Shown here: positions 1-17,558 of the stretch, piece after piece | Layout: every line of letters starts with the position of its first letter | Position numbering within the stretch: the stretch's first letter is position 1 | DNA from: a virus | Taxonomy: Duplodnaviria > Heunggongvirae > Uroviricota > Caudoviricetes | Length of the DNA stretch: 17,558 nt | Strand: one strand, 5' to 3' | Virus record (IMG/VR): IMGVR_UViG_2675903278_000001 | Position numbers and translations under genes: made by a program | The notes under the pieces: model-generated | Database searches by the model: none | What the model was told of the DNA's origin: nothing | Seen by the model: only the letters and a program-made list of their open reading frames with translations

Positions 1-242
1 AAAATCGTGTTGAGGCCAACGCCCATAATGCGGGCGGTTGCCCGGCATCCAACACCATTCATGGCCATATCAATGATTTTCTGGTGTGTACCGGGTTGAG
101 AAGCGGTGTAAGTGAACTGCAGTTGCCATGTTTTACGGCAGTGAGAGCAGAGATAGCGCTGATGTCCGGCAGTACTTTTACCGTTACGCACCACGCCTTC
201 AGTAGCTGAGCAGGAGGGACAACTGATGGAGATGGAAGCCAC
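1..242 (-). CDS. insA: IS1 InsA transposition regulator, truncated by the window edge (about 80 of ~91 codons present)
   Basis: Manual translation of the minus strand from a GTG at 242-240 gives [80 protein letters not shown], matching IS1 InsA with its Cys-rich zinc-finger-like N-terminus. Not in the ORF track because it has no stop inside the window. Confidence 0.85.
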
Positions 243-297
243 GGGAGCACCTCAAAAACACCATCATACACTAAATCAGTAAGTTGGCACCATTACC
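1..297 (-). mobile_element. IS1 insertion sequence, partial (terminal ~297 bp including one inverted-repeat end; the rest lies beyond the window start)
   Basis: Reverse complement of 260-297 reads GGTAATGGTGCCAACTTACTGATTTAGTGTATGATGG, the characteristic IS1 terminal inverted repeat (recalled from memory). The adjacent minus-strand reading frame translates as InsA. The element abuts Rz coding sequence at 297/298. Confidence 0.88.
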
Positions 298-628
298 GGC
301 GAACGCCACCATTACTGACATGCAGCAGCGCCAGCGTGATGCTGATGCACTCGATGATAAATACACGAAGGAGTTAGCTGATGCGAAAGCTGAAAATGAT
401 GCTCTTCGGCGCAAGCTTGATAATGGTGGTCGGGTGCTCGTCAAAGGAAAATGCCCTGTGCCATCCTCAGCCGAAACCTCCAGCGCCTCCGGCATGGGCA
501 ATGATGCCACCGTCGAACTCTCTCCAGTTGCTGGACGAAACGTTCTCGGTATCCGGGACGGAATTATCCGCGACCAAACAGCACTGAGAACGCTTCAGGA
601 ATACATCAGGACGCAATGCCTTCGATGA
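298..628 (+). pseudogene. Rz: Rz i-spanin, 3' fragment only (N-terminal ~40 codons removed or displaced by the IS1 insertion)
   Basis: The ORF-track protein 284-628 (ANATITDMQQRQRDADALDDKYTKELADAKAENDALRRKL...QEYIRTQCLR) matches the C-terminal two-thirds of lambda Rz. The frame is closed upstream by TAA at 272-274, inside IS1; the track's start at 284 is a TTG inside the IS1 terminus, not a real start. Confidence 0.85.
381..587 (+). CDS. Rz1: Rz1 o-spanin, outer-membrane lipoprotein embedded in the +1 frame of Rz
   Basis: 68 aa, MRKLKMMLFGASLIMVVGCSSKENALCHPQPKPPAPPAWAMMPP...: signal peptide with a VVGC lipobox and a proline-rich mature part, as in lambda Rz1. ATG at 381 is preceded by GGAG at 371-374. 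Wholly nested in the Rz remnant. Confidence 0.82.
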   Translation: MRKLKMMLFGASLIMVVGCSSKENALCHPQPKPPAPPAWAMMPPSNSLQLLDETFSVSGTELSATKQH

Positions 629-802
629 TAGCGATAATTTTACTCATCATCCTTCACATCTGGCTCTGTAGACAGGGTGGTGCTCACTTCTGGAGTGAAT
701 CCAGATTAAACATCTCATTGCTGATGCTTGATATTGAGCATTTTGCGCGCGGTAAGGGGCTGCGTTGAGATAAGAGTCAGTCATTACAAATACCAGGATT
801 TA

Positions 803-826
803 GCCTCGCATTCGCGGGGCTTTTTA
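803..826 (+). terminator. Putative intrinsic terminator-like hairpin (GC-rich imperfect stem followed by TTTTT) downstream of Rz/Rz1
   Basis: agCCTCGCattcGCGGGGcttttta at 803-826: imperfect GC-rich stem followed by a T-run on the plus strand. Confidence 0.4.
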
Positions 827-860: not shown

Positions 861-1119
861 TTTGATAATGGCTTATACCCTACACGGGATAACTTAACTG
901 ATATCCCTTTTAAAGGATAAAGGTATTCAAGCCTGACACATCATGCGCTGTATCGTCGCCGTATTCCCGTATTAACAGAGACCGTAGCCCGACGGGGAAC
1001 TCCTTCTGCGCGAGTGTGTGGGAATAATCAAAAACGATGCACACCGGGGTTACCGGGTACACATATTTCATCATGCCAGCGAGTCCGGTTCTGGCACGGA
1101 AGAAACCGGACGTTATGAT

Positions 1120-1545
1120 TTAGTGCGGAAATATTTGTGTAGTGTTCTGAATGTTCTCAGTAAAGAGTAATGAATTATCAAAGGTATAGTAATACCTTTT
1201 GTTTTCGTGGATATTTGTAATCCATCTGAAAACCCCTGCTGTAGCAAGATTTTTCCTGTATTCGTAAAATGATAACTCTCCTGATTTGAATCCTTTTAAG
1301 GTGGCTTCTATAAGGCATTTATTTTTTGAAAATCTTACATTTACAACCTTACCCTGTCCTTTTATTAAAACCGTATTATCGTTTTCAAGAACAAGATGAA
1401 TATTCTCTGTGGCTAAATAGTAAATGTAATGTGAGACATTGTGACGTTTTAGTTCAGAATAAAACCAGTGATAGTTTAAATTATTTCGCACTTTATCGAA
1501 TATTTGTTTAAAAATGGCAACCTGAGCCATTGTAGTACCTTCCAT
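1120..1545 (-). CDS. Hypothetical protein, 141 aa (136 aa from the second Met), AT-rich accessory gene, function unknown
   Basis: Complete minus-strand ORF in markedly AT-rich DNA. The second ATG (MAQVAIF...) is preceded by GGAAGG, so the real start is probably 1530. Lies 41 bp downstream (same strand) of the RHH-like ORF. I recognise no known domain. A closely similar ORF exists near the right end of lambda as far as I recall. Confidence 0.65.
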
Positions 1546-1586
1546 GTGATATGAGGGGTGTAGTCTGCACGATTATCTAAATTGCT

Positions 1587-1820
1587 TCAATCTGGTCTGA
1601 TCTGTTTTCTGAGCAATTCAGTAATGTCACTCTTTTCTTTGTTTGCTTCAGGAGAAACTCTTTTTTCTGAGCACAGTCTCCGGCGGCAGGCTTCAATGAC
1701 CCAGGCTGAGAAATTCCCGGACCCTTTTTGATCAAGAGCGATGTTAATTTGTTCAATCATTTGGTTAGGAAAGCGGATGTTGCGGGTTGTTGTTCTGCGG
1801 GTTCTGTTCTTCGTTGACAT
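1587..1820 (-). CDS. Small ribbon-helix-helix-like (Arc/MetJ/CopG-type) putative DNA-binding protein, 77 aa
   Basis: MSTKNRTRRTTTRNIRFPNQMIEQINIALDQKGSGNFSAWVIEACRRRL...: basic N-terminal tail, a short beta-strand motif (RNIRFP), then two helices, which is the typical RHH layout. GGGA lies upstream of the ATG (minus strand). Sits directly beside cos and is transcribed away from it. Confidence 0.6.
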   Translation of the reverse strand: MSTKNRTRRTTTRNIRFPNQMIEQINIALDQKGSGNFSAWVIEACRRRLCSEKRVSPEANKEKSDITELLRKQIRPD

Positions 1821-1989
1821 GAGGTTGTCCCGTATTCAGTGTCGCTGATTTGTATTGTCTGAAGTTGTTTTTACGTTAAGTTGATGCAGATCAATTAATA
1901 CGATACCTGCGTCATAATTGATTATTTGACGTGGTTTGATGGCGTAGATGCACGTTGTGACATGCAGATGATAATTATTATCATTTTGC

Positions 1990-2190
1990 GGGTCCTTTCC
2001 GGCGATCCGACAGGTTACGGGGCGGCGACCTCGCGGGTTTTCGCTATTTATGAAAATTTTCCGGTTTAAGGTGTTTCCGTTCTTCTTCGTCGTAACTTAA
2101 TGTTTTTATTTAAAATACCCCCTGAAAAGAAAGGAAACGACAGGTGCTGAAAGCGAGCTTTTTGGCCTCTGTCGTTTCCTTTCTCTGTTT
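1990..2190 (+). promoter_or_regulatory. cos: cos site: cosQ, cosN (12-nt cohesive-end sequence GGGCGGCGACCT at 2020-2031) and cosB with R3, IHF-site region, R2 and R1 terminase small-subunit binding elements
   Basis: ggttacgGGGCGGCGACCTcgcgggttttcgc matches the lambda cohesive-end junction. R-element-like repeats: gtgtttccgttcttcttcg (~2071-2089), gaaaagaaaggaaacgacag (~2124-2143, inverted), ctgtcgtttcctttctctg (~2169-2187). An A/T-rich stretch at ~2100-2120 lies between R3 and R2, where lambda has the IHF site I1. Confidence 0.9.
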
Positions 2191-2208: not shown

Positions 2209-2728
2209 ATGGAAGTCAACAAAAAGCAGCTGGCTGACATTTTCGGTGCGAGTATCCGTACCATTCAGAACTGGCAGGAACAGGGAATGCCCGTTCTGCG
2301 AGGCGGTGGCAAGGGTAATGAGGTGCTTTATGACTCTGCCGCCGTCATAAAATGGTATGCCAAAAGGGATGCTGAAATTGAGAACGAAAAGCTGCGCCGG
2401 GAGGTTGAAGAACTGCGGCAGGCCAGCGAGGCAGATCTCCAGCCAGGGACTATTGAGTACGAACGCCATCGACTTACGCGTGCGCAGGCCGACGCACAGG
2501 AACTGAAGAATGCCAGAGACTCCGCTGAAGTGGTGGAAACCGCATTCTGTACTTTCGTGTTGTCGCGGATCGCAGGTGAAATTGCCAGTATTCTCGACGG
2601 GATCCCCCTGTCGGTGCAGCGGCGTTTTCCGGAACTGGAAAACCGACATGTTGATTTCCTGAAACGGGATATCATCAAAGCCATGAACAAAGCAGCCGCG
2701 CTGGATGAACTGATACCGGGGTTGCTGA

Positions 2729-2754
<26 letters not shown>
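2209..2754 (+). CDS. nu1: Terminase small subunit (DNA recognition, winged-HTH N-terminus)
   Basis: 181 aa, MEVNKKQLADIFGASIRTIQNWQEQGMPVLRGGGKGNEV... matches lambda gpNu1. Lies immediately downstream of cosB and overlaps A. Confidence 0.96.
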
Positions 2755-6435
<3,681 letters not shown>

Positions 6436-6455
<20 letters not shown>

Positions 6456-7755
6456 TCTCCCGCATATTGCCAGCATGGCCTTTAATGAGCCGCTGATGCT
6501 TGAACCCGCCTATGCGCGGGTTTTCTTTTGTGCGCTTGCAGGCCAGCTTGGGATCAGCCGCCTGACGGATGCGGTGTCCGGCGACAGCCTGACTGCCCAG
6601 GAGGCACTCGCGACGCTGGCATTATCCGGTGATGATGACGGACCACGACAGGCCCGCAGTTATCAGGTCATGAACGGCATCGCCGTGCTGCCGGTGTCCG
6701 GCACGCTGGTCAGCCGGACGCGGGCGCTGCAGCCGTACTCGGGGATGACCGGTTACAACGGCATTATCGCCCGTCTGCAACAGGCTGCCAGCGACCCGAT
6801 GGTGGACGGCATTCTGCTCGATATGGACACGCCAGGCGGAATGGTGGCGGGGGCATTTGACTGCGCTGACATCATCGCCCGTGTGCGTGACATAAAACCG
6901 GTATGGGCGCTGGCCAACGACATGAACTGCAGTGCAGGTCAGCTGCTTGCCAGTGCCGCCTCCCGGCGTCTGGTCACGCAGACCGCCCGGACAGGCTCCA
7001 TCGGCGTCATGATGGCTCACAGTAATTACGGTGCTGCCCTGGAGAAACAGGGTGTGGAAATCACGCTGATTTACAGCGGCAGCCATAAGGTGGATGGCAA
7101 TCCCTACAGCCATCTTCCGGATGACGTCCGGGAGACACTGCAGTCCCGGATGGACGCAACCCGCCGGATGTTTGCACAGAAGGTGTCGGCATATACCGGC
7201 CTGTCTGTGCAGGCTGTGCTGGATACCGAGGCTGCAGTGTACAGCGGTCAGGAGGCCATTGATGCCGGACTGGCTGATGAACTTGTTAACAGCACCGATG
7301 CGATCACCGTCATGCGTGATGCACTGGATGCGCGTAAATCCCGTCTCTCAGGAGGGCGAATGACCAAAGAGACTCAATCAACAACTGTTTCAGCCACTGC
7401 TTCGCAGACTGACGTTACTGACGTGGTGCCAGCGACGGAGGGCGAAAACGCCAGCGCGGCGCAGCCGGACGTGAACGCGCAGATCACCGCAGCGGTTGCG
7501 GCAGAAAACAGCCGCATTATGGGGATCCTCAACTGTGAGGAGGCTCACGGACGCGAAGAACAGGCCCGCGTGCTGGCAGAAACCCCCGGTATGACCGTGG
7601 AAACGGCCCGCCGCATTCTGGCAGCTGCACCACAGAGTGCACAGGCGCGCAGTGACACTGCGCTGGATCGTCTGATGCAGGGGGCACCGGCACCGCTGGC
7701 TGCAGGTAACCCGGCATCTGATGCCGTTAACGATTTGCTGAACACACCAGTGTAA
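6436..7755 (+). CDS. C: Prohead (capsid maturation) protease C, GTG start
   Basis: The ORF-track frame 6301-7755 contains VTAELRNLPHIASMAFNEPLMLEPAYARVFF..., and lambda gpC begins at the TAELRNL position. GTG at 6436 gives 439 aa, the lambda length. The track's start at 6301 is an in-frame upstream extension overlapping B and is not used. Confidence 0.92.
7150..7755 (+). CDS. nu3: Scaffolding protein Nu3, nested in-frame in the 3' part of C
   Basis: Internal ATG at 7150 in the C frame (MDATRRMFAQKVSAYTG...). Position corresponds to the lambda nu3 start; the nested in-frame arrangement is known lambda biology. Confidence 0.8.
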   Translation: MDATRRMFAQKVSAYTGLSVQAVLDTEAAVYSGQEAIDAGLADELVNSTDAITVMRDALDARKSRLSGGRMTKETQSTTVSATASQTDVTDVVPATEGENASAAQPDVNAQITAAVAAENSRIMGILNCEEAHGREEQARVLAETPGMTVETARRILAAAPQSAQARSDTALDRLMQGAPAPLAAGNPASDAVNDLLNTPV

Positions 7756-7764
7756 GGGATGTTT

Positions 7765-8097
7765 ATGACGAGCAAAGAAACCTTTACCCATTACCAGCCG
7801 CTGGGCAACAGTGACCCGGCACATACGGCAACCGCGCCCGGCGGATTGAGTGCGAAAGCGCCTGCAATGACCCCGCTGATGCTGGATACCTCCACCCGTA
7901 AGCTGGTTGCGTGGGATGGCACCACCGACGGTGCTGCCGTTGGCATTCTGGCGGTTGATGCTGACCAGACCAGCACCACGCTGACGTTCTACAAGTCCGG
8001 CACGTTCCGTTATGAGGATGTGCTCTGGCCGGAGGCTGCCAGCGACGAGACGAAAAAACGGACCGCGTTTGCCGGAACGGCAATCAGCATCGTTTAA
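7765..8097 (+). CDS. D: Head decoration (capsid-stabilising) protein D
   Basis: 110 aa from ATG 7765 ([27 protein letters not shown]...), matching lambda gpD. TAAGGGA precedes the start. The track's start at 7759 adds MF and is less likely. Confidence 0.95.
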
Positions 8098-8118
8098 CTT
8101 TACCCTTCATCACTAAAG

Positions 8119-8139
8119 GCCGCCTGTGCGGCTTTTTTT
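8119..8139 (+). terminator. Terminator-like hairpin between D and E (GCCGC-ctgt-GCGGC followed by T7)
   Basis: aaaGGCCGCctgtGCGGCttttttta: perfect 5-6 bp GC stem, 4-nt loop, seven T residues on the plus strand. Inside the late operon, so likely a partial terminator or RNA-stability element. Confidence 0.45.
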
Positions 8140-8152
8140 ACGGGATTTTTTT

Positions 8153-9178
8153 ATGTCGATGTACACAACCGCCCAGCTGCTGGCGGCAAATGAGCAGAAA
8201 TTTAAGTTTGATCCGCTGTTTCTGCGTCTCTTTTTCCGTGAGAGCTATCCCTTCACTACGGAGAAAGTCTATCTCTCACAAATTCCGGGACTGGTAAACA
8301 TGGCGCTGTACGTTTCGCCGATTGTTTCCGGTGAGGTTATCCGTTCCCGTGGCGGCTCCACCTCTGAATTTACGCCGGGATATGTCAAACCCAAGCATGA
8401 AGTGAATCCGCAGATGACCCTGCGTCGCCTGCCGGATGAAGATCCGCAGAATCTGGCGGACCCGGCTTACCGCCGCCGTCGCATCATCCTGCAGAACATG
8501 CGTGACGAAGAGCTGGCCATTGCTCAGGTCGAAGAGATGCAGGCAGTTTCTGCCGTGCTCAAGGGCAAATACACCATGACCGGTGAAGTCTTCGATCCGG
8601 TTGAGGTGGATATGGGCCGCAGTGCGGCGAACAACATCACGCAGTCCGGCGGCACGGAGTGGAGCAAGCGTGACAAGTCCACGTATGACCCGACCGACGA
8701 TATCGAAGCCTACGCGCTGAACGCCAGCGGCGTGGTGAATATCATCGTGTTTGATCCGAAAGGCTGGGCGCTGTTCCGTTCCTTCAAAGCCGTCAAGGAG
8801 AAGCTGGATACCCGTCGCGGCTCTCATTCCGAACTGGAGACAGCGGTAAAAGACCTGGGCGAAGCGGTGTCCTATAAGGGGATGTATGGCGATACGGCGA
8901 TCGTCGTGTATTCCGGACAGTACGTGGAAAACGACGTCAAAAAGAACTTCCTGCCGGACAACACGATGGTGCTGGGGAACACTCAGGCACGCGGTCTGCG
9001 CACCTATGGCTGCATTCAGGATGCGGACGCACAGCGCGAAGGTATTAACGCCTCTGCCCGCTACCCGAAAAACTGGGTGACCACCGGCGATCCGGCGCGT
9101 GAGTTCACCATGATTCAGTCAGCACCGCTGATGCTGCTGGCTGATCCTGATGCGTTCGTGTCCGTACAACTGGCGTAA
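8153..9178 (+). CDS. E: Major capsid protein E
   Basis: 341 aa from ATG 8153 (MSMYTTAQLLAANEQKFKFDPLFLRLFFRESYPF...), matching lambda gpE. The track's start at 8126 is an upstream extension. Confidence 0.96.
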   Translation: MSMYTTAQLLAANEQKFKFDPLFLRLFFRESYPFTTEKVYLSQIPGLVNMALYVSPIVSGEVIRSRGGSTSEFTPGYVKPKHEVNPQMTLRRLPDEDPQNLADPAYRRRRIILQNMRDEELAIAQVEEMQAVSAVLKGKYTMTGEVFDPVEVDMGRSAANNITQSGGTEWSKRDKSTYDPTDDIEAYALNASGVVNIIVFDPKGWALFRSFKAVKEKLDTRRGSHSELETAVKDLGEAVSYKGMYGDTAIVVYSGQYVENDVKKNFLPDNTMVLGNTQARGLRTYGCIQDADAQREGINASARYPKNWVTTGDPAREFTMIQSAPLMLLADPDAFVSVQLA

Positions 9179-9219
9179 TCATGGCCCTTCGGGGCCATTT
9201 TCTCTCTGTGGAGGAGTCC

Positions 9220-9615
9220 ATGACGAAAGATGAACTGATTGCCCGTCTTCAGGTGCTGGGTGAGCAACTGAACCGTGATGTCAGCCTGACGGGGACGAAA
9301 GAAGAACTGGTGCTCCGTGTGGCAGAGCTGGAAGAGGAGCTTGATGACACGGATGACGCTGCCGGTCAGGACACATCTGTCAGCCCGGAAAATGCGCTGA
9401 CCGGACATGAAAATGAGGTGGTATCAGCGCAGCCGGATACCGTGATTGATACGGCTGCTCTGGTCACGGTCGTGGCACTGGTGACGCTGCATACTGATGC
9501 ACTTCACGCCACGCGGGATGAGCCTGTGGCATTTGTGCTGCCGGGAACGGCGTTTCGTGTCTCTGCCGGTGTGGCAGCCGAAATGACAGAACATGGCCTG
9601 GCCAGAATGCAATAA
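9220..9615 (+). CDS. FI: DNA-packaging accessory protein FI
   Basis: 131 aa from ATG 9220 (MTKDELIARLQVLGEQLNRDVSLTGTKEEL...GLARMQ), matching lambda gpFI. By my coordinate arithmetic it is one codon shorter than the lambda reference. Confidence 0.93.
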   Translation: MTKDELIARLQVLGEQLNRDVSLTGTKEELVLRVAELEEELDDTDDAAGQDTSVSPENALTGHENEVVSAQPDTVIDTAALVTVVALVTLHTDALHATRDEPVAFVLPGTAFRVSAGVAAEMTEHGLARMQ

Positions 9616-9626
9616 CGGGAGGCGCT

Positions 9627-9980
9627 GTGGCTGATTCCGATAACCTGTTCGATGCTGCCATTGCCCGCGCCGATGAAACGATACGCGGGTACATGGGAAC
9701 GTCAGCCACCATGACATCCGGTGAGCAGTCCGGTGCTGTGATACGTGGTGTTTTTGATGACCCTGAAAATATCAGCTATGCCGGACAGGGGGTGCGCGTT
9801 GAAGGCTCCAGCCCGTCCCTGTTTGTCCGGACTGATGATGTGCGGCAGCTGCGGCGCGGCGACACGCTGACCATCGGTGAGGAAAACTTCTGGATAGACC
9901 GGATTTCGCCGGATGATGGCGGAAGCTGTCATCTCTGGCTTGGGCGGGGCGTACCGCCTGCCGTTAACCGTCGCCGCTGA
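9627..9980 (+). CDS. FII: Head-tail joining protein FII, GTG start
   Basis: 117 aa, (M)ADSDNLFDAAIARADETIRGYMGTSAT...GRGVPPAVNRRR, matching lambda gpFII. GGGAGG lies 6 nt upstream of the GTG. Confidence 0.94.
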   Translation: MADSDNLFDAAIARADETIRGYMGTSATMTSGEQSGAVIRGVFDDPENISYAGQGVRVEGSSPSLFVRTDDVRQLRRGDTLTIGEENFWIDRISPDDGGSCHLWLGRGVPPAVNRRR

Positions 9981-9991
9981 AAGGGGGATGT

Positions 9992-10570
9992 ATGGCCATA
10001 AAAGGTCTTGAGCAGGCCGTTGAAAACCTCAGCCGTATCAGCAGAACGGCGGTGCCCGGTGCCGCCGCAATGGCCATTAACCGCGTTGCTTCATCCGCGA
10101 TATCGCAGTCGGTGGCACAGGTTGCCCGTGAGACAAAGGTACGCCGGAAACTGGTAAAGGAAAGGGCCAGGCTGAAAAGGGCCACGGTCAAAAATCCGCA
10201 GGCCAGAATCAGGGTTAACCGGGGGGATTTGCCCGTAATCAAGCTGGGTAACGCGCGGGTTGTCCTTTCCCGCCGCAGACGTCGTAAAAAGGGGCAGCGT
10301 TCATCCCTGAAAGGTGGCGGCAGCGTGCTTGTGGTGGGAAACCGTCGTATTCCCGGCGCGTTTATTCAGCAACTGAAAAATGGCCGGTGGCATGTCATGC
10401 AGCGTGTGGCCGGGAAAAACCGTTACCCCATTGATGTGGTGAAAATCCCGATGGCGGTGCCGCTTACCACGGCGTTTAAACAGAATATTGAACGGATACG
10501 GCGTGAACGTCTTCCGAAAGAGCTGGGCTATGCGCTGCAGCATCAACTGAGAATGGTAATAAAGCGATGA
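9992..10570 (+). CDS. Z: Tail completion protein Z
   Basis: 192 aa, the length and position of lambda gpZ (MAIKGLEQAVENLSRISRTAVPG...). Confidence 0.94.
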   Translation: MAIKGLEQAVENLSRISRTAVPGAAAMAINRVASSAISQSVAQVARETKVRRKLVKERARLKRATVKNPQARIRVNRGDLPVIKLGNARVVLSRRRRRKKGQRSSLKGGGSVLVVGNRRIPGAFIQQLKNGRWHVMQRVAGKNRYPIDVVKIPMAVPLTTAFKQNIERIRRERLPKELGYALQHQLRMVIKR

Positions 10571-10962
10571 AACATACTGAACTCCGTGCAGCCGTACTGG
10601 ATGCACTGGAGAAGCATGACACCGGGGCGACGCTTTTTGATGGTCGCCCCGCTGTTTTTGATGAGGCGGATTTTCCGGCAATTGCCGTTTATCTCACCGG
10701 CGCTGAATACACGGGCGAAGAGCTGGACAGCGATACCTGGCAGGCGGAGCTGCATATTGAAGTTTTCCTGCCTGCTCAGGTGCCGGATTCAGAGTTGGAT
10801 TCGTGGATGGAGTCCCGGATTTATCCGGTGATGAGCGATATCCCGGCACTGTCAGATTTGATCACCAGTATGGTGGCCAGTGGCTATGACTACCGGCGCG
10901 ACGATGATGCGGGCCTGTGGAGTTCAGCCGATCTGACGTATGTCATTACCTATGAAATGTGA
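10567..10962 (+). CDS. U: Tail terminator protein U
   Basis: 131 aa ([31 protein letters not shown]...), the length and position of lambda gpU. 4-nt overlap with Z. Confidence 0.94.
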
Positions 10963-10969
10963 GGACGCT

Positions 10970-11710
10970 ATGCCTGTACCAAATCCTACAATGCCGGTGA
11001 AAGGTGCCGGGACCACCCTGTTGGTTTATAAGGGGAGCGGTGACCCTTATGCGAATCCGCTTTCAGACGTTGACTGGTCGCGTCTGGCAAAAGTTAAAGA
11101 CCTGACGCCCGGCGAACTGACCGCTGAGTCCTATGACGACAGCTATCTCGATGATGAAAATGCGGACTGGACTGCGACCGGGCAGGGGCAGAAATCTGCC
11201 GGAGATACCAGCTTCACGCTGGCGTGGATGCCCGGAGAGCAGGGGCAGCAGGCGCTGCTGGCGTGGTTTAATGAAGGCGATACCCGTGCCTATAAAATCC
11301 GCTTCCCGAACGGCACGGTCGATGTGTTCCGTGGCTGGGTCAGCAGTATCGGTAAGGCGGTGACGGCGAAGGAAGTGATCACCCGCACGGTGAAAGTCAC
11401 CAATGTGGGACGTCCGTCGATGGCAGAAGATCGCAGCACGGTGACGGCGACAACCGGCATGACGGTGACACCCGCCAGTGCTTCCGTAGTGAAAGGGCAG
11501 AGCACCACGCTGACCGTGGCATTCCAGCCGGAGTGCGCAACCGACAAGAGCTTCCGTGCGGTGTCTGCGGATAAAACAAAAGCCACCGTGTCGGTCAGTG
11601 GTATGACCATCACCGTGAAAGGTGTTGCTGCAGGCAAGGTCAACATTCCGGTCGTATCCGGTAATGGTGAGTTTGCTGCGGTTGCAGAAATCAACGTCAC
11701 CGCCAGTTAA
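10970..11710 (+). CDS. V: Major tail tube protein V with C-terminal Ig-like domain
   Basis: 246 aa from ATG 10970 ([36 protein letters not shown]...), matching lambda gpV. The T/V-rich C-terminal segment is typical of the Ig-like domain. The track's start at 10940 is an upstream extension. Confidence 0.95.
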
Positions 11711-11725
11711 TCCGGAGAGTCAGCG

Positions 11726-12148
11726 ATGTTCCTGAAAACCGAATCATTTGAACATAACGGTGTGACCGTCACGCTTTCTGAACTGTCAGCCCTGCAGCGT
11801 ATTGAGCATCTCGCCCTGATGAAACGGCAGGCAGAACAGGCGGAGTCAGACAGCAACCGGAAGTTTACTGTGGAAGACGCCATCAAAACCGGCGCGTTTC
11901 TGGTGGCGATGTCCCTGTGGCATAACCATCCGCAGAAGACGCAGATGCCGTCCATGAATGAAGCCGTTAAACAGATTGAGCAGGAAGTGCTTACCACCTG
12001 GCCCACGGAGGCAATTTCTCATGCTGAAAACGTGGTGTACCGGCTGTCTGGTATGTATGAGTTTGTGGTGAATAATGCCCCTGAACAGACAGAGGACGCC
12101 GGGCCCGCAGAGCCTGTTTTTGCGGGAAAGTGTTCGACGGTGAGCTGA
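11726..12148 (+). CDS. G: Tail assembly chaperone G
   Basis: 140 aa (MFLKTESFEHNGVTVTLSELSALQRIEHLALMKRQAEQ...), the length and position of lambda gpG. Ends just after the slippery heptamer. Confidence 0.94.
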   Translation: MFLKTESFEHNGVTVTLSELSALQRIEHLALMKRQAEQAESDSNRKFTVEDAIKTGAFLVAMSLWHNHPQKTQMPSMNEAVKQIEQEVLTTWPTEAISHAENVVYRLSGMYEFVVNNAPEQTEDAGPAEPVFAGKCSTVS

Positions 12149-12564
12149 GTTTTGCCCTGAAACTGGCGCGTGAGATGGGGCGACCCGACTGGCGTGCCAT
12201 GCTTGCCGGGATGTCATCCACGGAGTATGCCGACTGGCACCGCTTTTACAGTACCCATTATTTTCATGATGTTCTGCTGGATATGCACTTTTCCGGGCTG
12301 ACGTACACCGTGCTCAGCCTGTTTTTCAGCGATCCGGATATGCATCCGCTGGATTTCAGTTTGCTGAACCGGCGTGAGGCTGACGAAGAGCCTGAAGATG
12401 ATGTGCTGATGCAGAAAGCGGCAGGGCTTGCCGGAGGTGTCCGCTTTGGCCCGGACGGGAATGAAGTTATCCCTACTTCCCCGGATGTGGCGGACATGAC
12501 GGAGGATGACGTAATGCTGATGACAGTATCAGAAGGGATCGCAGGAGGAGTCCGGTATGGCTGA
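11726..12564 (+). CDS. T: Tail assembly chaperone G-T fusion, made by programmed -1 ribosomal frameshift at GGGAAAG (12124-12130)
   Basis: Slippery heptamer G GGA AAG sits in the G zero frame at 12124-12130. The -1 frame ORF (track 12130-12564, 144 aa) continues to 12564 and overlaps the H start, as in lambda. Confidence 0.85.
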
Positions 12565-15118
12565 ACCGGTAGGCGATCTGGTCGTTGATTTGAGTCTGGA
12601 TGCGGCCAGATTTGACGAGCAGATGGCCAGAGTCAGGCGTCATTTTTCCGGTACGGAAAGTGATGCGAAAAAAACAGCGGCAGTCGTTGAACAGTCGATG
12701 AACCGGCAGGCGCTGGCTGCACAGAAAGCGGGAATTTCCGTCGGGCAGTATAAAGCCGCCATGCGTATGCTGCCTGCGCAGTTCACTGACGTGGCCACGC
12801 AGCTTGCAGGCGGGCAAAGTCCGTGGCTGATCCTGCTGCAACAGGGGGGTCAGGTGAAGGACTCCTTCGGCGGGATGATCCCCATGTTCCGGGGGCTTGC
12901 CGGTGCGATCACCCTGCCGATGGTGGGGGCCACCTCGCTGGCGGTGGCGACCGGTGCGCTGGCGTATGCCTGGTATCAGGGCAACTCAACCCTGTCCGAT
13001 TTCAACAAAACGCTGGTCCTTTCCGGCAATCAGGCCGGGCTGACGGCAGATCGTATGCTGGTCCTGTCCAGAGCCGGGCAGGCGGCAGGGCTGACGTTTA
13101 ACCAGACCAGCGAGTCACTCAGCGCACTGGTTAAGGCGGGGGTAAGCGGTGAGGCTCAGATTGCGTCCATCAGCCAGAGTGTGGCGCGTTTCTCCTCTGC
13201 ATCCGGCGTGGAGGTGGACAAGGTCGCTGAAGCCTTCGGGAAGCTGACCACTGACCCGACGTCGGGGCTGACAGCGATGGCGCGCCAGTTCCATAACGTG
13301 ACGGCGGAGCAGATTGCGTATGTTGCTCAGTTGCAGCGTTCCGGCGAAGAAGCCGGGGCATTGCAGGCGGCGAACGAGGCCGCGACGAAAGGGTTTGATG
13401 ACCAGACCCGCCGCCTGAAAGAGAACATGGGCACGCTGGAAACCTGGGCAGACAGGACAGCACGGGCATTCAAATCCATGTGGGATGCGGTGCTGGATAT
13501 TGGTCGTCCTGATACCGCGCAGGAGATGCTGATTAAGGCAGAGGCCGCGTTTAAGAAAGCGGACGATATCTGGAATCTGCGCAAGGATGATTATTTTGTT
13601 AACGATGAAGCGCGGGCGCGTTACTGGGATGATCGTGAAAAGGCCCGTCTTGCGCTTGAAGCCGCCCGAAAGAAGGCTGAGCAGCAGAGTCAACAGGACA
13701 AAAATGCGCAGCAGCAGAGCGATACCGAAGCGTCACGGCTGAAATATACCGAAGAGGCGCAGAAGGCTTACGAACGGCTGCAGACGCCGCTGGAGAAATA
13801 TACCGCCCGTCAGGAAGAACTGAACAAGGCACTGAAAGACGGGAAAATCCTGCAGGCGGATTACAACACGCTGATGGCGGCGGCGAAAAAGGATTATGAA
13901 GCGACGCTGAAAAAGCCGAAACAGTCCGGCGTGAAGGTGTCTGCGGGCGATCGTCAGGAAGACAGTGCTCATGCTGCCCTGCTGACGCTTCAGGCAGAAC
14001 TCCGGACGCTGGAGAAGCATGCCGGAGCAAATGAGAAAATCAGCCAGCAGCGCCGGGATTTGTGGAAGGCGGAGAGTCAGTTCGCGGTACTGGAGGAGGC
14101 GGCGCAACGTCGCCAGCTGTCTGCACAGGAGAAATCCCTGCTGGCGCATAAAGATGAGACGCTGGAGTACAAACGCCAGCTGGCTGCACTTGGCGACAAG
14201 GTTACGTATCAGGAGCGCCTGAACGCGCTGGCGCAGCAGGCGGATAAATTCGCACAGCAGCAACGGGCAAAACGGGCCGCCATTGATGCGAAAAGCCGGG
14301 GGCTGACTGACCGGCAGGCAGAACGGGAAGCCACGGAACAGCGCCTGAAGGAACAGTATGGCGATAATCCGCTGGCGCTGAATAACATCATGTCAGAGCA
14401 GAAAAAGACCTGGGCGGCTGAAGACCAGCTTCGCGGGAACTGGATGGCAGGCCTGAAGTCCGGCTGGAGTGAGTGGGAAGAGAGCGCCACGGACAGTATG
14501 TCGCAGGTAAAAAGTGCAGCCACGCAGACCTTTGATGGTATTGCACAGAATATGGCGGCGATGCTGACCGGCAGTGAGCAGAACTGGCGCAGCTTCACCC
14601 GTTCCGTGCTGTCCATGATGACAGAAATTCTGCTTAAGCAGGCAATGGTGGGGATTGTCGGGAGTATCGGCAGCGCCATTGGCGGGGCTGTTGGTGGCGG
14701 CGCATCCGCGTCAGGCGGTACAGCCATTCAGGCCGCTGCGGCGAAATTCCATTTTGCAACCGGAGGATTTACGGGAACCGGCGGCAAATATGAGCCAGCG
14801 GGGATTGTTCACCGTGGTGAGTTTGTCTTCACGAAGGAGGTAACCAGCCGGATTGGCGTGGGGAATCTTTACCGGCTGATGCGCGGCTATGCCACCGGCG
14901 GTTATGTCGGTACACCGGGCAGCATGGCAGACAGCCGGTCGCAGGCGTCCGGGACGTTTGAGCAGAATAACCATGTGGTGATTAACAACGACGGCACGAA
15001 CGGGCAGATAGGTCCGGCTGCTCTGAAGGCGGTGTATGACATGGCCCGCAAGGGTGCCCGTGATGAAATTCAGACACAGATGCGTGATGGTGGCCTGTTC
15101 TCCGGAGGTGGACGATGA
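12557..15118 (+). CDS. H: Tail tape-measure protein H
   Basis: 853 aa, exactly the lambda gpH length, with helical repeat-rich composition. Sits between G/T and M. Confidence 0.96.
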   Translation: MAEPVGDLVVDLSLDAARFDEQMARVRRHFSGTESDAKKTAAVVEQSMNRQALAAQKAGISVGQYKAAMRMLPAQFTDVATQLAGGQSPWLILLQQGGQVKDSFGGMIPMFRGLAGAITLPMVGATSLAVATGALAYAWYQGNSTLSDFNKTLVLSGNQAGLTADRMLVLSRAGQAAGLTFNQTSESLSALVKAGVSGEAQIASISQSVARFSSASGVEVDKVAEAFGKLTTDPTSGLTAMARQFHNVTAEQIAYVAQLQRSGEEAGALQAANEAATKGFDDQTRRLKENMGTLETWADRTARAFKSMWDAVLDIGRPDTAQEMLIKAEAAFKKADDIWNLRKDDYFVNDEARARYWDDREKARLALEAARKKAEQQSQQDKNAQQQSDTEASRLKYTEEAQKAYERLQTPLEKYTARQEELNKALKDGKILQADYNTLMAAAKKDYEATLKKPKQSGVKVSAGDRQEDSAHAALLTLQAELRTLEKHAGANEKISQQRRDLWKAESQFAVLEEAAQRRQLSAQEKSLLAHKDETLEYKRQLAALGDKVTYQERLNALAQQADKFAQQQRAKRAAIDAKSRGLTDRQAEREATEQRLKEQYGDNPLALNNIMSEQKKTWAAEDQLRGNWMAGLKSGWSEWEESATDSMSQVKSAATQTFDGIAQNMAAMLTGSEQNWRSFTRSVLSMMTEILLKQAMVGIVGSIGSAIGGAVGGGASASGGTAIQAAAAKFHFATGGFTGTGGKYEPAGIVHRGEFVFTKEVTSRIGVGNLYRLMRGYATGGYVGTPGSMADSRSQASGTFEQNNHVVINNDGTNGQIGPAALKAVYDMARKGARDEIQTQMRDGGLFSGGGR

Positions 15119-15444
15119 AGACCTTCCGCTGGAAAGTGAAACCCGGTATGGATGTGGCTTCGGTCCCTTCTGTAAGAAAGGTGCGCTTTGGTGATGGCTA
15201 TTCTCAGCGAGCGCCTGCCGGGCTGAATGCCAACCTGAAAACGTACAGCGTGACGCTTTCTGTCCTCCGTGAGGAGGCCACGGTACTGGAGTCGTTTCTG
15301 GAAGAGCACGGGGGCTGGAAATCCTTTCTGTGGACGCCGCCTTATGAGTGGCGGCAGATAAAGGTGACCTGCGCAAAATGGTCGTCGCGGGTCAGTATGT
15401 TGCGTGTTGAGTTCAGCGCAGAGTTTGAACAGGTGGTGAACTGA
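15115..15444 (+). CDS. M: Tail tip protein M
   Basis: 109 aa (MKTFRWKVKPGMDVASVPSVRKVRFGDGYSQRAPAGLNANLKTYS...), the length and position of lambda gpM. 4-nt overlap with H. Confidence 0.94.
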   Translation: MKTFRWKVKPGMDVASVPSVRKVRFGDGYSQRAPAGLNANLKTYSVTLSVLREEATVLESFLEEHGGWKSFLWTPPYEWRQIKVTCAKWSSRVSMLRVEFSAEFEQVVN

Positions 15445-16142
15445 TGCAGGATATCCGGCAGGAAACACTGAATGAATGCACCCGTGCGGAGCAGTCGGCC
15501 AGCGTGGTGCTCTGGGAAATCGACCTGACAGAGGTCGGTGGAGAACGTTATTTTTTCTGTAATGAGCAGAACGAAAAAGGTGAGCCGGTCACCTGGCAGG
15601 GGCGACAGTATCAGCCGTATCCCATTCAGGGGAGCGGTTTTGAACTGAATGGCAAAGGCACCAGTACGCGCCCCACGCTGACGGTTTCTAACCTGTACGG
15701 TATGGTCACCGGGATGGCGGAAGATATGCAGAGTCTGGTCGGCGGAACGGTGGTCCGGCGTAAGGTTTACGCCCGTTTTCTGGATGCGGTGAACTTCGTC
15801 AACGGAAACAGCGAAGCCGATCCGGAGCAGGAGGTGATCAGCCGCTGGCGCATTGAGCAGTGCAGCGAACTGAGCGCGGTGAGTGCCTCCTTTGTACTGT
15901 CCACGCCGACGGAAACGGATGGCGCTGTTTTTCCGGGACGTATCATGCTGGCCAACACCTGCACCTGGACCTATCGCGGTGACGAGTGCGGTTATAGCGG
16001 TCCGGCTGTCGCGGATGAATATGACCAGCCAACGTCCGATATCACGAAGGATAAATGCAGCAAATGCCTGAGCGGTTGTAAGTTCCGCAATAACGTCGGC
16101 AACTTTGGCGGCTTCCTTTCCATTAACAAACTTTCGCAGTAA
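15444..16142 (+). CDS. L: Tail tip protein L (Cys-cluster, Fe-S-binding C-terminus)
   Basis: 232 aa, the length and position of lambda gpL. The C-terminus carries clustered cysteines (CTWTYRGDECGYSG...KDKCSKCLSGCKF). Confidence 0.94.
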   Translation: MQDIRQETLNECTRAEQSASVVLWEIDLTEVGGERYFFCNEQNEKGEPVTWQGRQYQPYPIQGSGFELNGKGTSTRPTLTVSNLYGMVTGMAEDMQSLVGGTVVRRKVYARFLDAVNFVNGNSEADPEQEVISRWRIEQCSELSAVSASFVLSTPTETDGAVFPGRIMLANTCTWTYRGDECGYSGPAVADEYDQPTSDITKDKCSKCLSGCKFRNNVGNFGGFLSINKLSQ

Positions 16143-16147
16143 ATCCC

Positions 16148-16891
16148 ATGACACAGACAGAATCAGCGATTCTGGCGCACGCCCGGCGATGTGCGCCAGC
16201 GGAGTCGTGCGGCTTCGTGGTAAGCACGCCGGAGGGGGAAAGATATTTTCCCTGCGTGAATATCTCCGGTGAGCCGGAGGCGTATTTCCGTATGTCGCCG
16301 GAAGACTGGCTGCAGGCAGAAATGCAGGGTGAGATTGTGGCGCTGGTCCACAGCCACCCCGGTGGTCTGCCCTGGCTGAGTGAGGCCGACCGGCGGCTGC
16401 AGGTGCAGAGTGATTTGCCGTGGTGGCTGGTCTGCCGGGGGACGATTCATAAGTTCCGCTGTGTGCCGCATCTCACCGGGCGGCGCTTTGAGCACGGTGT
16501 GACGGACTGTTACACACTGTTCCGGGATGCTTATCATCTGGCGGGGATTGAGATGCCGGACTTTCATCGTGAGGATGACTGGTGGCGTAACGGCCAGAAT
16601 CTCTATCTGGATAATCTGGAGGCCACAGGGCTGTATCAGGTGCCGTTGTCATCAGCACAACCGGGCGATGTGCTGCTGTGCTGTTTTGGTTCATCGGTGC
16701 CGAATCATGCCGCCATTTACTGTGGTGATGGCGAGCTGCTGCACCATATTCCTGAACAACTGAGCAAACGAGAGAGGTATACCGACAAATGGCAGCGACG
16801 CACACACTCCCTCTGGCGTCACCGGGCATGGCGCGCATCTGCCTTTACGGGGATTTACAACGATTTGGCCGCCGCATCGACCTTCGAGTGA
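16148..16891 (+). CDS. K: Tail tip assembly protein K (JAB/MPN metalloprotease-like N-domain plus NlpC/P60-like C-domain); start uncertain, internal alternative at 16292
   Basis: 247-aa ORF starting 6 nt after the L stop. Contains HSHPGG...SEAD (JAMM-like H-x-H...S-x-x-D) and, downstream, DCYTLF and NHAAIY (Cys and His of an NlpC/P60-like fold). The internal ATG at 16292 (MSPEDWLQAEMQG...) would give the shorter classical lambda K. Confidence 0.85.
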   Translation: MTQTESAILAHARRCAPAESCGFVVSTPEGERYFPCVNISGEPEAYFRMSPEDWLQAEMQGEIVALVHSHPGGLPWLSEADRRLQVQSDLPWWLVCRGTIHKFRCVPHLTGRRFEHGVTDCYTLFRDAYHLAGIEMPDFHREDDWWRNGQNLYLDNLEATGLYQVPLSSAQPGDVLLCCFGSSVPNHAAIYCGDGELLHHIPEQLSKRERYTDKWQRRTHSLWRHRAWRASAFTGIYNDLAAASTFE

Positions 16892-17430
16892 AAACGGGGT
16901 CCGAAGCCATCCGGGCGCTGGCCATGCAGATCCCGGCATTTCGTCAGAAACTGAGCGACGGCTGGTACCAGGTACGCATTGCCGGGCGTGATGCAGGTGA
17001 AACCGAATTGTCTGCCCGTCTTAATGAGCCGCTGGAAAATGGTGCCGTGATCCATATCGTGCCGCGTCTGGCAGGAGCCAAAAGTGGCGGTGTGTTTCAG
17101 GCTGTGCTGGGGGCGGCTGTTATGGCGGTTGCTATATGGATGCCGGGGGTAGGAATTATGGCGAGTAATCTGCTGTTTTCTCTCGGTGCCAGTATGACGC
17201 TTGGCGGTGTTGCACAGATGCTGGCCCCTAAACCCAAAACCCCCCGCACACAGACAACGGATAACGGCAAACAGAATACCTATTTTTCTTCACTGGATAA
17301 CATGGTTGCCCAGGGCAATGTTCTGCCGGTTCTGTACGGTGAAATGCGCGTGGGGTCACGCGTGGTTTCTCAGGAGATCAGCACGGCAGACGAAGGGGAT
17401 GGTGGTCAGGTTGTGGTGATTGGTCGCTGA
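16789..17430 (+). CDS. I: Tail tip assembly protein I
   Basis: 213 aa (MAATHTLPLASPGMARICLYGDLQRFGRRIDLRVKTG...GDGGQVVVIGR). Overlaps the K 3' end by ~100 nt in another frame, as in lambda. Confidence 0.9.
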   Translation: MAATHTLPLASPGMARICLYGDLQRFGRRIDLRVKTGSEAIRALAMQIPAFRQKLSDGWYQVRIAGRDAGETELSARLNEPLENGAVIHIVPRLAGAKSGGVFQAVLGAAVMAVAIWMPGVGIMASNLLFSLGASMTLGGVAQMLAPKPKTPRTQTTDNGKQNTYFSSLDNMVAQGNVLPVLYGEMRVGSRVVSQEISTADEGDGGQVVVIGR

Positions 17431-17447
17431 TGCAAAATGTTTTATGT

Positions 17448-17469
17448 GAAACCGCCTCCGGGCGGTTTT
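17448..17469 (+). other. Hairpin in the I-J intergenic region (ACCGCC-tccg-GGCGGT followed by TTT)
   Basis: gaaACCGCCtccgGGCGGTtttatcgttt: 6-8 bp GC-rich stem with a short T-run. Probably an RNA-stability or weak pause element. Confidence 0.35.
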
Positions 17470-17490
17470 ATCGTTTATGGAGCATGACGA

Positions 17491-17558
17491 ATGGGTAAAG
17501 GCAGCAGTAAGGGGCATACCCCGCGCGAAGCGAAGGACAACCTGAAGTCCACGCAGCT
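17491..17558 (+). CDS. J: Central tail fibre / host-specificity protein J, 5' end only (continues past the window)
   Basis: ATG at 17491 followed by MGKGSSKGHTPREAKDNLKSTQ, the lambda gpJ N-terminus. GGAG lies upstream. Confidence 0.9.
   Translation, partial: MGKGSSKGHTPREAKDNLKSTQ

Follow-up and report, generated by a model that had tools for sequence, protein, structure and literature searches.

A gene pair between the lysis genes and cos

We analyzed a 17,558-nucleotide stretch of tailed-phage DNA (IMG/VR record IMGVR_UViG_2675903278_000001; Caudoviricetes), called the window throughout, with the focus on two short genes that lie between its lysis genes and its cohesive-end site (cos). 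On the minus strand, two open reading frames (ORFs), at 1120-1545 (141 aa) and 1587-1820 (77 aa), are separated by a 41-bp spacer. Their orientation is opposite to that of nu1 (2209-2754), A (2729-4654) and the remaining late genes for head and tail, all of which are on the plus strand. This is the layout described in a first-pass annotation made from the sequence alone, and its coordinates were confirmed. The cassette begins about 200 bp from cosN and reads away from it. The features that make up the locus are the following.

Positions 1083-1111, minus strand: hairpin 3' of the stop codon of the larger gene.
Positions 1120-1530, minus strand: ydfO/ybcV-family gene (DUF1398), 136 aa, pI 9.4; an upstream ATG at 1545 is an alternative start that gives 141 aa.
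Positions 1531-1602, minus strand: leader of the DUF1398 gene, with a CAGAT-CAGAC-CAGAT repeat, a GATCAGACC box and a GATAAT -10-like hexamer, then a GGAAGG Shine-Dalgarno sequence (1538-1543).
Positions 1587-1820, minus strand: ynfO/ylcI-family gene (DUF3950), 77 aa, pI 10.6; residues 1-50 form the conserved DUF3950 core and residues 51-77 a variable tail.
Positions 1821-2019, minus strand: upstream region of the ynfO-family gene, reaching cos, with a 13-nt inverted repeat (1890-1902/1910-1922, a candidate operator) and a palindrome (1967-1984).
Positions 2020-2031, plus strand: cosN cohesive-end sequence GGGCGGCGACCT, read directly; by homology to lambda-type genome ends it marks both ends, right and left, of the virion DNA.

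The GC content of both genes departs from that of the neighboring phage genes. Measured against 411-nt windows across 2209-17558 (mean 57.1%, standard deviation 2.7%), the DUF1398 gene stands at 31.4% (z = -9.4). The DUF3950 gene has 44.0% (z = -3.9). The earlier description of the cassette as one-third GC fits the DUF1398 gene alone. Both ORFs are real genes, judging from their strong family matches and from ratios of nonsynonymous to synonymous divergence (dN/dS) of 0.06-0.37 against their paralogues. A possible third gene in the cassette (910-1074, minus strand, 54 aa) was rejected: it has no family match, is missing from the RefSeq annotation and has neither its start nor its frame conserved in the cryptic prophage DLP12. 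An Rfam scan of positions 1-2400 gave nothing exceeding noise.

The larger gene encodes a DUF1398 protein of known fold

The first-pass annotation had recognized no family for the larger product. We found that it matches Pfam DUF1398 at 147 bits (cutoff 22), with residues 13-131 covering positions 1-119 of the 119-position profile, and that it matches Escherichia coli YdfO, whose structure was solved by NMR (PDB 2HH8), with an E-value of 1.4e-69 and an identity of about 75%. It shares the fold of this solved member, an orphan (alpha2-beta3)x2 arrangement. Fold comparison of DUF1398 showed no likeness to any toxin, enzyme or virion protein.

Translation most likely starts at the ATG at 1530, since the Shine-Dalgarno sequence lies 7 nt upstream of this codon and since RefSeq gives a 136-aa protein both for an identical copy in E. 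coli and for K-12. The 141-aa ORF named in the first-pass annotation exists, but its start is probably not the one used. With the start at 1530, the intergenic spacer is 56 bp.

DUF1398 is under purifying selection (dN/dS 0.12-0.37), and R15, Y35, T41, N43, Y91, G99, W103, R112, Y114 and E125 are invariant or nearly so in the family. Because several of these residues fall on predicted strands and the protein is basic, the conserved Tyr/Trp/Arg face of the sheet probably forms a surface for binding nucleic acid or a small ligand. Both cassette proteins have negative hydropathy scores and show no hydrophobic N-terminal stretch by eye, and thus look cytoplasmic.

Several other labels for the DUF1398 product were considered and set aside. 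Matches to Pfam HEPN_AbiA_CTD (E 0.014; 15.8 bits against a cutoff of 27) and to NCBIfam TrpE were far under threshold, and no defense model in PADLOC-DB 2.0 was matched, the only hit being Csx23 for DUF1398 (E 0.025, 12.6 bits) and the small protein returning none. We also rejected the PHROG 413 label 'head protein' and the lambda label 'putative envelope protein', given the lack of a hydrophobic N-terminus by eye, the lack of a virion-like fold and the knock-down of the lambda gene without effect on plating (see below). These labels, carried by homologues of lambdap78 in NC_001416, NC_049951 and phage Kati, appear to be propagated mis-annotations.

The smaller gene encodes a DUF3950 protein with a likely ribbon-helix-helix core

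The 77-aa product matches Pfam DUF3950 at 74.8 bits (cutoff 25) and NCBIfam YlcI_YnfO_N at 35.7 bits (cutoff 30), and it is 96% identical to YnfO of the K-12 cryptic prophage Qin. Compared with the copy in Shiga toxin (Stx) phages, the core has a dN/dS of 0.06-0.11 at a dS of about 0.8-1.0, which is near saturation; purifying selection on it is very strong. A monomer model made with AlphaFold2 (AF2), of moderate confidence (pLDDT 67), places helices at residues 19-32, 34-53 and 60-73 after a basic, unstructured N-terminus.

The first-pass annotation had seen in this protein the hallmarks of a ribbon-helix-helix (RHH) DNA-binding protein. The putative likeness to known RHH regulators and antitoxins (Arc/Mnt, CopG, RelB, ParD and Mycobacterium MazE) lies in the RNIRFP strand-helix-G-x-x-N/S turn-helix register, in the predicted helices, in the size and in the basic N-terminal arm, and an hhalign alignment puts the segment from RNIRFP to G33 in the register of Arc and Mnt, as expected for this fold. 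Unlike those proteins, however, it has no significant sequence or profile match to RHH families or structures and no conserved partner toxin, and both the RHH dimer and its DNA binding are predictions here. The call is thus plausible in register and helices and lacks a significant match; we consider an RHH fold for residues 1-50 to be likely but not established, with moderate support. PHROG profiles gave one weak, HicB-like match (E 0.007). A match to a 'transcriptional repressor' of Pasteurella phage Pmp7 was discarded, as it was weak and lay on the strand opposite to the annotated gene.

The DUF1398 gene carries its own leader and 3' hairpin

Three tandem CAGAY pentamers (1590-1604, minus strand) run from the 3' end of ynfO into the start of the DUF1398 leader, and the GATCAGACC box at 1594-1602 overlaps the final ynfO codons. 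The leader, about 75 nt long, is common to the window, Qin, DLP12 (where it precedes ybcV) and one further locus in which the segment is non-coding. The corresponding box in Qin and DLP12 is GGTCAGACC, which differs from that of the window by one change in the left half-site; the Qin and DLP12 boxes are reported PdhR sites from a SELEX experiment (PMC7660256).

On the other side of the gene, the hairpin 3' of the DUF1398 stop codon has no U-tract and its fold energy is not exceptional (z = -0.84). Qin, DLP12 and a third locus all retain it, the Qin copy with a compensatory change in the stem (GGTT/AACC to GGCT/AGCC), and it may mark the 3' end of the DUF1398 module or stabilize its RNA. A scan of the minus strand found no terminator with a U-tract. 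Since the leader and the 3' hairpin are kept across four loci, in one of which the leader is non-coding, DUF1398 behaves as a self-contained module.

The region upstream of ynfO is near-identical in lambda, 434, Qin and DLP12, and in Stx-type phages it is unrelated beyond about 50 nt from the ATG. It contains an AT-rich, near-perfect palindrome, ATGATAATTATTATCAT, at 1967-1984, about 40-50 bp left of cosN, which is kept in lambda-type phages apart from small changes and by eye resembles a Fur-box-like GATAAT repeat. The start codons of the DUF3950 gene and of a divergent HNH endonuclease gene, which precedes TerS-TerL, are just 41 bp apart in Stx-type and related prophages, so that the DUF3950 promoter of these prophages has to be inside or against the HNH gene.

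Arrangements of the locus in Qin, lambda and DLP12

The closest phage is Escherichia phage Kati, with 99.3% identity over 1.5 kb, and an identical copy lies in one E. coli chromosome, inside a decayed prophage. More broadly, of 5426 complete E. coli genomes, 3802 (70%) have DNA that matches this 800-bp region, at up to 12 places in one genome.

The K-12 pair ynfO (b4533)-ydfO (b1549) of Qin has the same gene order, strands, spacing, leader, 3' hairpin and position beside a nohA/cos remnant as that of the window. It differs in its diverged DUF1398 coding sequence (dS 0.67) and in its box, GGTCAGACC rather than GATCAGACC, and Qin has lost the packaging and head-tail genes for which the window keeps long ORFs. 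Apparent fusions of DUF3950 with DUF1398 (protein families P0013, 233 aa, 761 members, and P0014) are gene-calling artefacts in which the ynfO TGA is read as Trp; metagenome gene callers report hundreds of such false 233-aa products because the TGA of Qin ynfO and the upstream ydfO ATG, 14 codons away, share one reading frame (L004 6988-7047).

The first-pass annotation had supposed that a closely related pair exists at the right end of lambda, and this proved right: lambda carries lambdap78 and a YlcI-like ORF that is often unannotated. In lambda and DLP12, as in the window, members of both families lie between Rz and cos and face against the late operon, and the ynfO upstream DNA up to cos is near-identical. 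In contrast to the window, lambda and DLP12 have ybcW (lambdap79, plus strand) inserted into the RHH gene past about codon 50, which splits the two genes and leaves a 64-aa YlcI with a different tail on one side and ybcV (lambdap78) on the other; they also carry bor. Neither bor nor ybcW is present anywhere in the window, which consequently lacks the reported trigger of the Vulcan defense system described below. Homology between DLP12 and the window begins at the GGTCAGACC box, about 75 nt before the ybcV start codon, and translated upstream extensions of lambda-type ybcV still show a trace of the YnfO tail (...VRPD). Most simply read, these alignments would make the arrangement in Qin and the window ancestral and that of lambda and DLP12 derived, by insertion of the ybcW segment.

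Genes with cold-shock domains (CSD) recur near DUF1398: cspI, cspB, cspF and ydfK in Qin, and a gene for a 158-aa CSD protein convergent with a solitary copy in Kluyvera. This may be coincidence or a regulatory or functional hint.

The two genes are distributed independently

DUF3950 was found in 155 phage records and DUF1398 in 43. Among E. coli genomes the DUF3950 core occupies 9861 places in 4184 genomes and full-length, phage-type DUF1398 occurs in 3011; one O157 genome has 8 DUF3950 places, and another O157 genome has 1 DUF1398 place.

Wherever the flanking genes of a locus are present, DUF3950 comes first on the strand opposite to the packaging genes, at the junction of lysis and packaging modules, and this position holds for both lambda-type Nu1-A and HNH-TerS-TerL (HNH/HK97-type) packaging modules. 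The gene is also retained in remnants that have no packaging genes. Its 3' neighbor differs between loci and can be bor (434), a small ORF, KilA-N or TonB_C on the opposite strand (Stx-type phages) or DUF1398. Phage 434 and the Stx-type phages thus have DUF3950 without DUF1398. Conversely, the distant DUF1398 genes are solitary and chromosomal, without an RHH neighbor, in Salmonella, Kluyvera and Pseudocitrobacter and as ycgX in K-12, and they are next to sopE (Salmonella) and bluR (ycgX) or in the vicinity of an aryl-polyene-type cluster or of icd (Kluyvera). A 64-aa DUF3950 variant with an unrelated tail also adjoins a DUF1398 gene, so the tail of YnfO does not form a conserved element for binding a partner. 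Between Rz and cos, DUF1398, ybcW and bor are each variably present; the moron character proposed in the first-pass annotation is borne out by this presence and absence among related phages together with the anomalous composition and the position at a module boundary. The lambdoid morons bor and lom are likewise non-essential additions of atypical composition, transcribed independently of the late operon or against it and kept in prophages, and bor fills the adjoining slot in lambda and 434; they differ from the window pair in coding for outer-membrane proteins with known phenotypes.

Published data on the K-12 and lambda copies

As the first-pass annotation had supposed, the literature that we searched assigns neither gene a function or phenotype. 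Several reports nonetheless bear on the K-12 and lambda copies. Knock-down of lambdap78 by CRISPRi had no effect on plating, making the gene non-essential (PMC10695390). Its neighbor lambdap79 activates the Vulcan NADase defense, and escape phages delete lambdap79, apparently by recombination with Qin, which would yield the arrangement seen in the window (bioRxiv 10.64898/2026.09.04.749371).

In K-12, ybcV mRNA is down 10-fold in a pdhR mutant (PMC7660256), ydfO is up about 100-fold on ionic-liquid shock (PMC4077768), and ybcW and ylcI form a convergent overlapping transcript pair in RNA-seq data, so that ylcI is transcribed from a cryptic prophage (PMC12288877). DLP12 ybcV and ybcW rise more than 1000-fold on overexpression of T4 MotB, which alters H-NS-dependent repression (PMC7827196), and ydfO was scored as essential by transposon-directed insertion sequencing (TraDIS) only, not in deletion collections (PMC5821084). 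The MotB and TraDIS observations would both fit coating of this AT-rich DNA by H-NS. YdfO was produced alone for the NMR structure (2HH8), a screen for glycogen phenotypes scored an ASKA clone of ybcV, and a ybcV::kan deletion strain exists and is viable. We did not use the statement that YdfO overexpression confers resistance to oxidative stress, as it is cited second-hand in PMC4077768 and may reflect confusion with yfdO.

The left flank is damaged by IS1

The first-pass annotation had placed the cassette between the lysis genes and cos. The position is correct, but the lysis flank is not intact. It contains the following features.

Positions 1-296, minus strand: IS1 end (Pfam Zn_ribbon_InsA and HTH_Tnp_IS1), in which InsA runs leftwards from 242; its terminal inverted repeat, GGTAATGGTGCCAACTTACTGATTTAGTG, ends at 296.
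Positions ~297-628, plus strand: Rz truncated at its 5' end (Rz'; Pfam Phage_lysis), as compared with the intact Rz of phage Kati.
Positions 381-587, plus strand: Rz1 (Pfam Rz1).

The IS1 junction at about 297 has cost Rz its first ~40 codons, membrane anchor included, and the lysis cassette in the window is reduced to Rz' and Rz1. As the IS1 end truncates Rz, the window comes from a lysis-defective, IS-damaged prophage in a bacterial chromosome and not a free phage. Overlapping the Rz stop codon is a 50-aa ORF with a hydrophobic N-terminus (616-768, plus strand), listed by RefSeq as hypothetical in the identical E. coli copy, and after it comes a terminator-like, GC-rich hairpin with a T-run (802-821, plus strand). 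Lambda has bor in that slot.

Discussion

The window pair is probably best explained as two separately mobile accessory genes (morons) that are adjacent by chance in the Qin-type arrangement. The first gene encodes a small, very basic protein whose first 50 residues would most likely bind DNA as an RHH dimer. Such a protein would regulate its own minus-strand transcription and possibly also act on the DUF1398 leader. Candidate targets, offered as leads only, are the inverted repeat of 13 nt upstream of its gene (1890-1922) and the CAGAT-CAGAC-CAGAT repeat of that leader. The second gene is AT-rich cargo that brings its own leader and 3' hairpin, and its K-12 paralogues respond to host factors. 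We suspect that its product, a basic cytoplasmic protein, acts on host physiology, probably through binding of nucleic acid or a small ligand. Because both genes are antisense to the late transcript from pR', convergent late transcription would silence them during lytic growth, and expression would come mainly from prophages and cryptic prophages.

Several observations weigh against this explanation. Where both genes occur, they are mostly close together, and the 77-aa form, an RHH domain followed by a C-terminal helix, has a build typical of antitoxins. The RHH assignment itself meets difficulties: the AF2 monomer, of only moderate confidence as noted above, forms no N-terminal strand; Pfam RHH families gave zero matches to 24 DUF3950 members at E-values up to 10; the DUF3950 profile had no match in the PDB and BLASTP of the small protein against Arc and Mnt returned nothing; and the hhalign comparison, made with a hand-written RHH alignment, reached an E-value of 0.023 with a probability of only 2%. 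A scan of the minus strand for consensus sigma-70 promoters found none, so the timing of expression is something that we infer, and the expression data come from the K-12 paralogues rather than from the window element.

A small RHH gene followed on the same strand by a larger gene, after a gap of 41-56 bp, has the appearance of a type II toxin-antitoxin system, in which YnfO would be the antitoxin, its C-terminal helix would neutralize a DUF1398 toxin and the complex would autoregulate the operon; the weak HicB-like match could be taken the same way. Comparative and published data argue strongly against an obligate pair of this kind. DUF3950 and DUF1398 are not obligately linked (155 versus 43 phage records), DUF1398 is solitary in several genera and as K-12 ycgX, without an RHH neighbor, and a gene on the opposite strand separates the two in lambda and DLP12. 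The YnfO tail, moreover, is not conserved among DUF1398-paired loci, DUF1398 has its own leader and resembles no known toxin fold or family, YdfO could be overproduced alone for NMR, and the ASKA ybcV clone could be scored in the glycogen screen. We regard this explanation as the least probable of those considered, and the toxin-antitoxin or abortive-infection pair proposed in the first-pass annotation is not supported: it fails on co-occurrence, and the solitary DUF1398 genes, the split in lambda and DLP12 and the lack of a PADLOC match speak against it. An anti-phage role in the lysogen that does not depend on a tight pair, such as superinfection exclusion or abortive infection by the DUF1398 protein, the RHH protein or both, singly or loosely coupled, would suit the moron position near the bor slot, the anomalous composition and the retention in cryptic prophages of most E. 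coli. That Vulcan senses lambdap79, the neighbor in lambda, means that the region takes part in phage-host conflict. Against such a role, no PADLOC model was matched, HEPN_AbiA_CTD scored well below its cutoff, the searched literature reports no phenotype, and the solitary chromosomal paralogues adjoin ordinary host genes; we think it unlikely.

Two further explanations start from the position beside cosN. Lambda DNA enters the cell with its right end leading, as reportedly shown by Chattoraj and Inman in 1974, and genes that read inward from this end, about 200 bp from cosN and oriented away from it, could be switched on ahead of all others in the genome and work against host defenses. DUF3950 stays end-proximal in phages with unrelated terminases, and both proteins, being basic, could bind nucleic acid. 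Such phage-side early genes are nevertheless hard to reconcile with retention and selection in cryptic prophages that never inject, with solitary chromosomal paralogues of DUF1398, with the knock-down of lambdap78 that left plating on a laboratory host unaffected, and with the absence of an evident early promoter, and we find them highly unlikely. We give equally little credence to a boundary regulator, in which the RHH protein would limit late read-through into the packaging genes as a roadblock or repressor, or act at cos, with DUF1398 as an unrelated passenger. In its favor, DUF3950 is invariably and immediately divergent from the first packaging gene in lambda-type and HNH/HK97-type modules, and its core is under very strong constraint (dN/dS 0.06-0.11 at dS ~0.8-1.0). 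However, the two phage types have unrelated DNA upstream of the gene from about 50 nt onward and thus show no operator in common, remnants without packaging genes still keep the gene, and minimal lambda cos fragments in cosmids are packaged without it. A broader proposal joins elements of these: DUF3950 would be a conserved lambdoid regulator fixed at the lysis/packaging junction and, with variable cargo such as DUF1398, would form a first-injected, inward-reading unit in phage-host conflict that counters defenses or controls leakage of late transcription in the prophage. We consider this quite unlikely.

Returning to the explanation as two separate morons, the element is already known as sequence, as families and, for one of its proteins, as structure (2HH8): the window pair is one more copy of ynfO-ydfO, annotated in K-12 and present in lambda. 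Since the comparative data resolve the pair into two independent modules, its appearance alone is no reason to list it as a toxin-antitoxin or defense candidate, and the 'head protein' label that PHROG 413 has spread to lambdap78 homologues is without support. The two genes, present in most E. coli genomes, under purifying selection and located beside lambdap79, the Vulcan trigger, belong to the uncharacterised gene content of the best-studied phage and bacterium; lambda mutants that escape Vulcan seem to take on the Qin-type arrangement of the window. To learn what the junction-anchored RHH gene does would close a small, long-standing gap in lambda biology.

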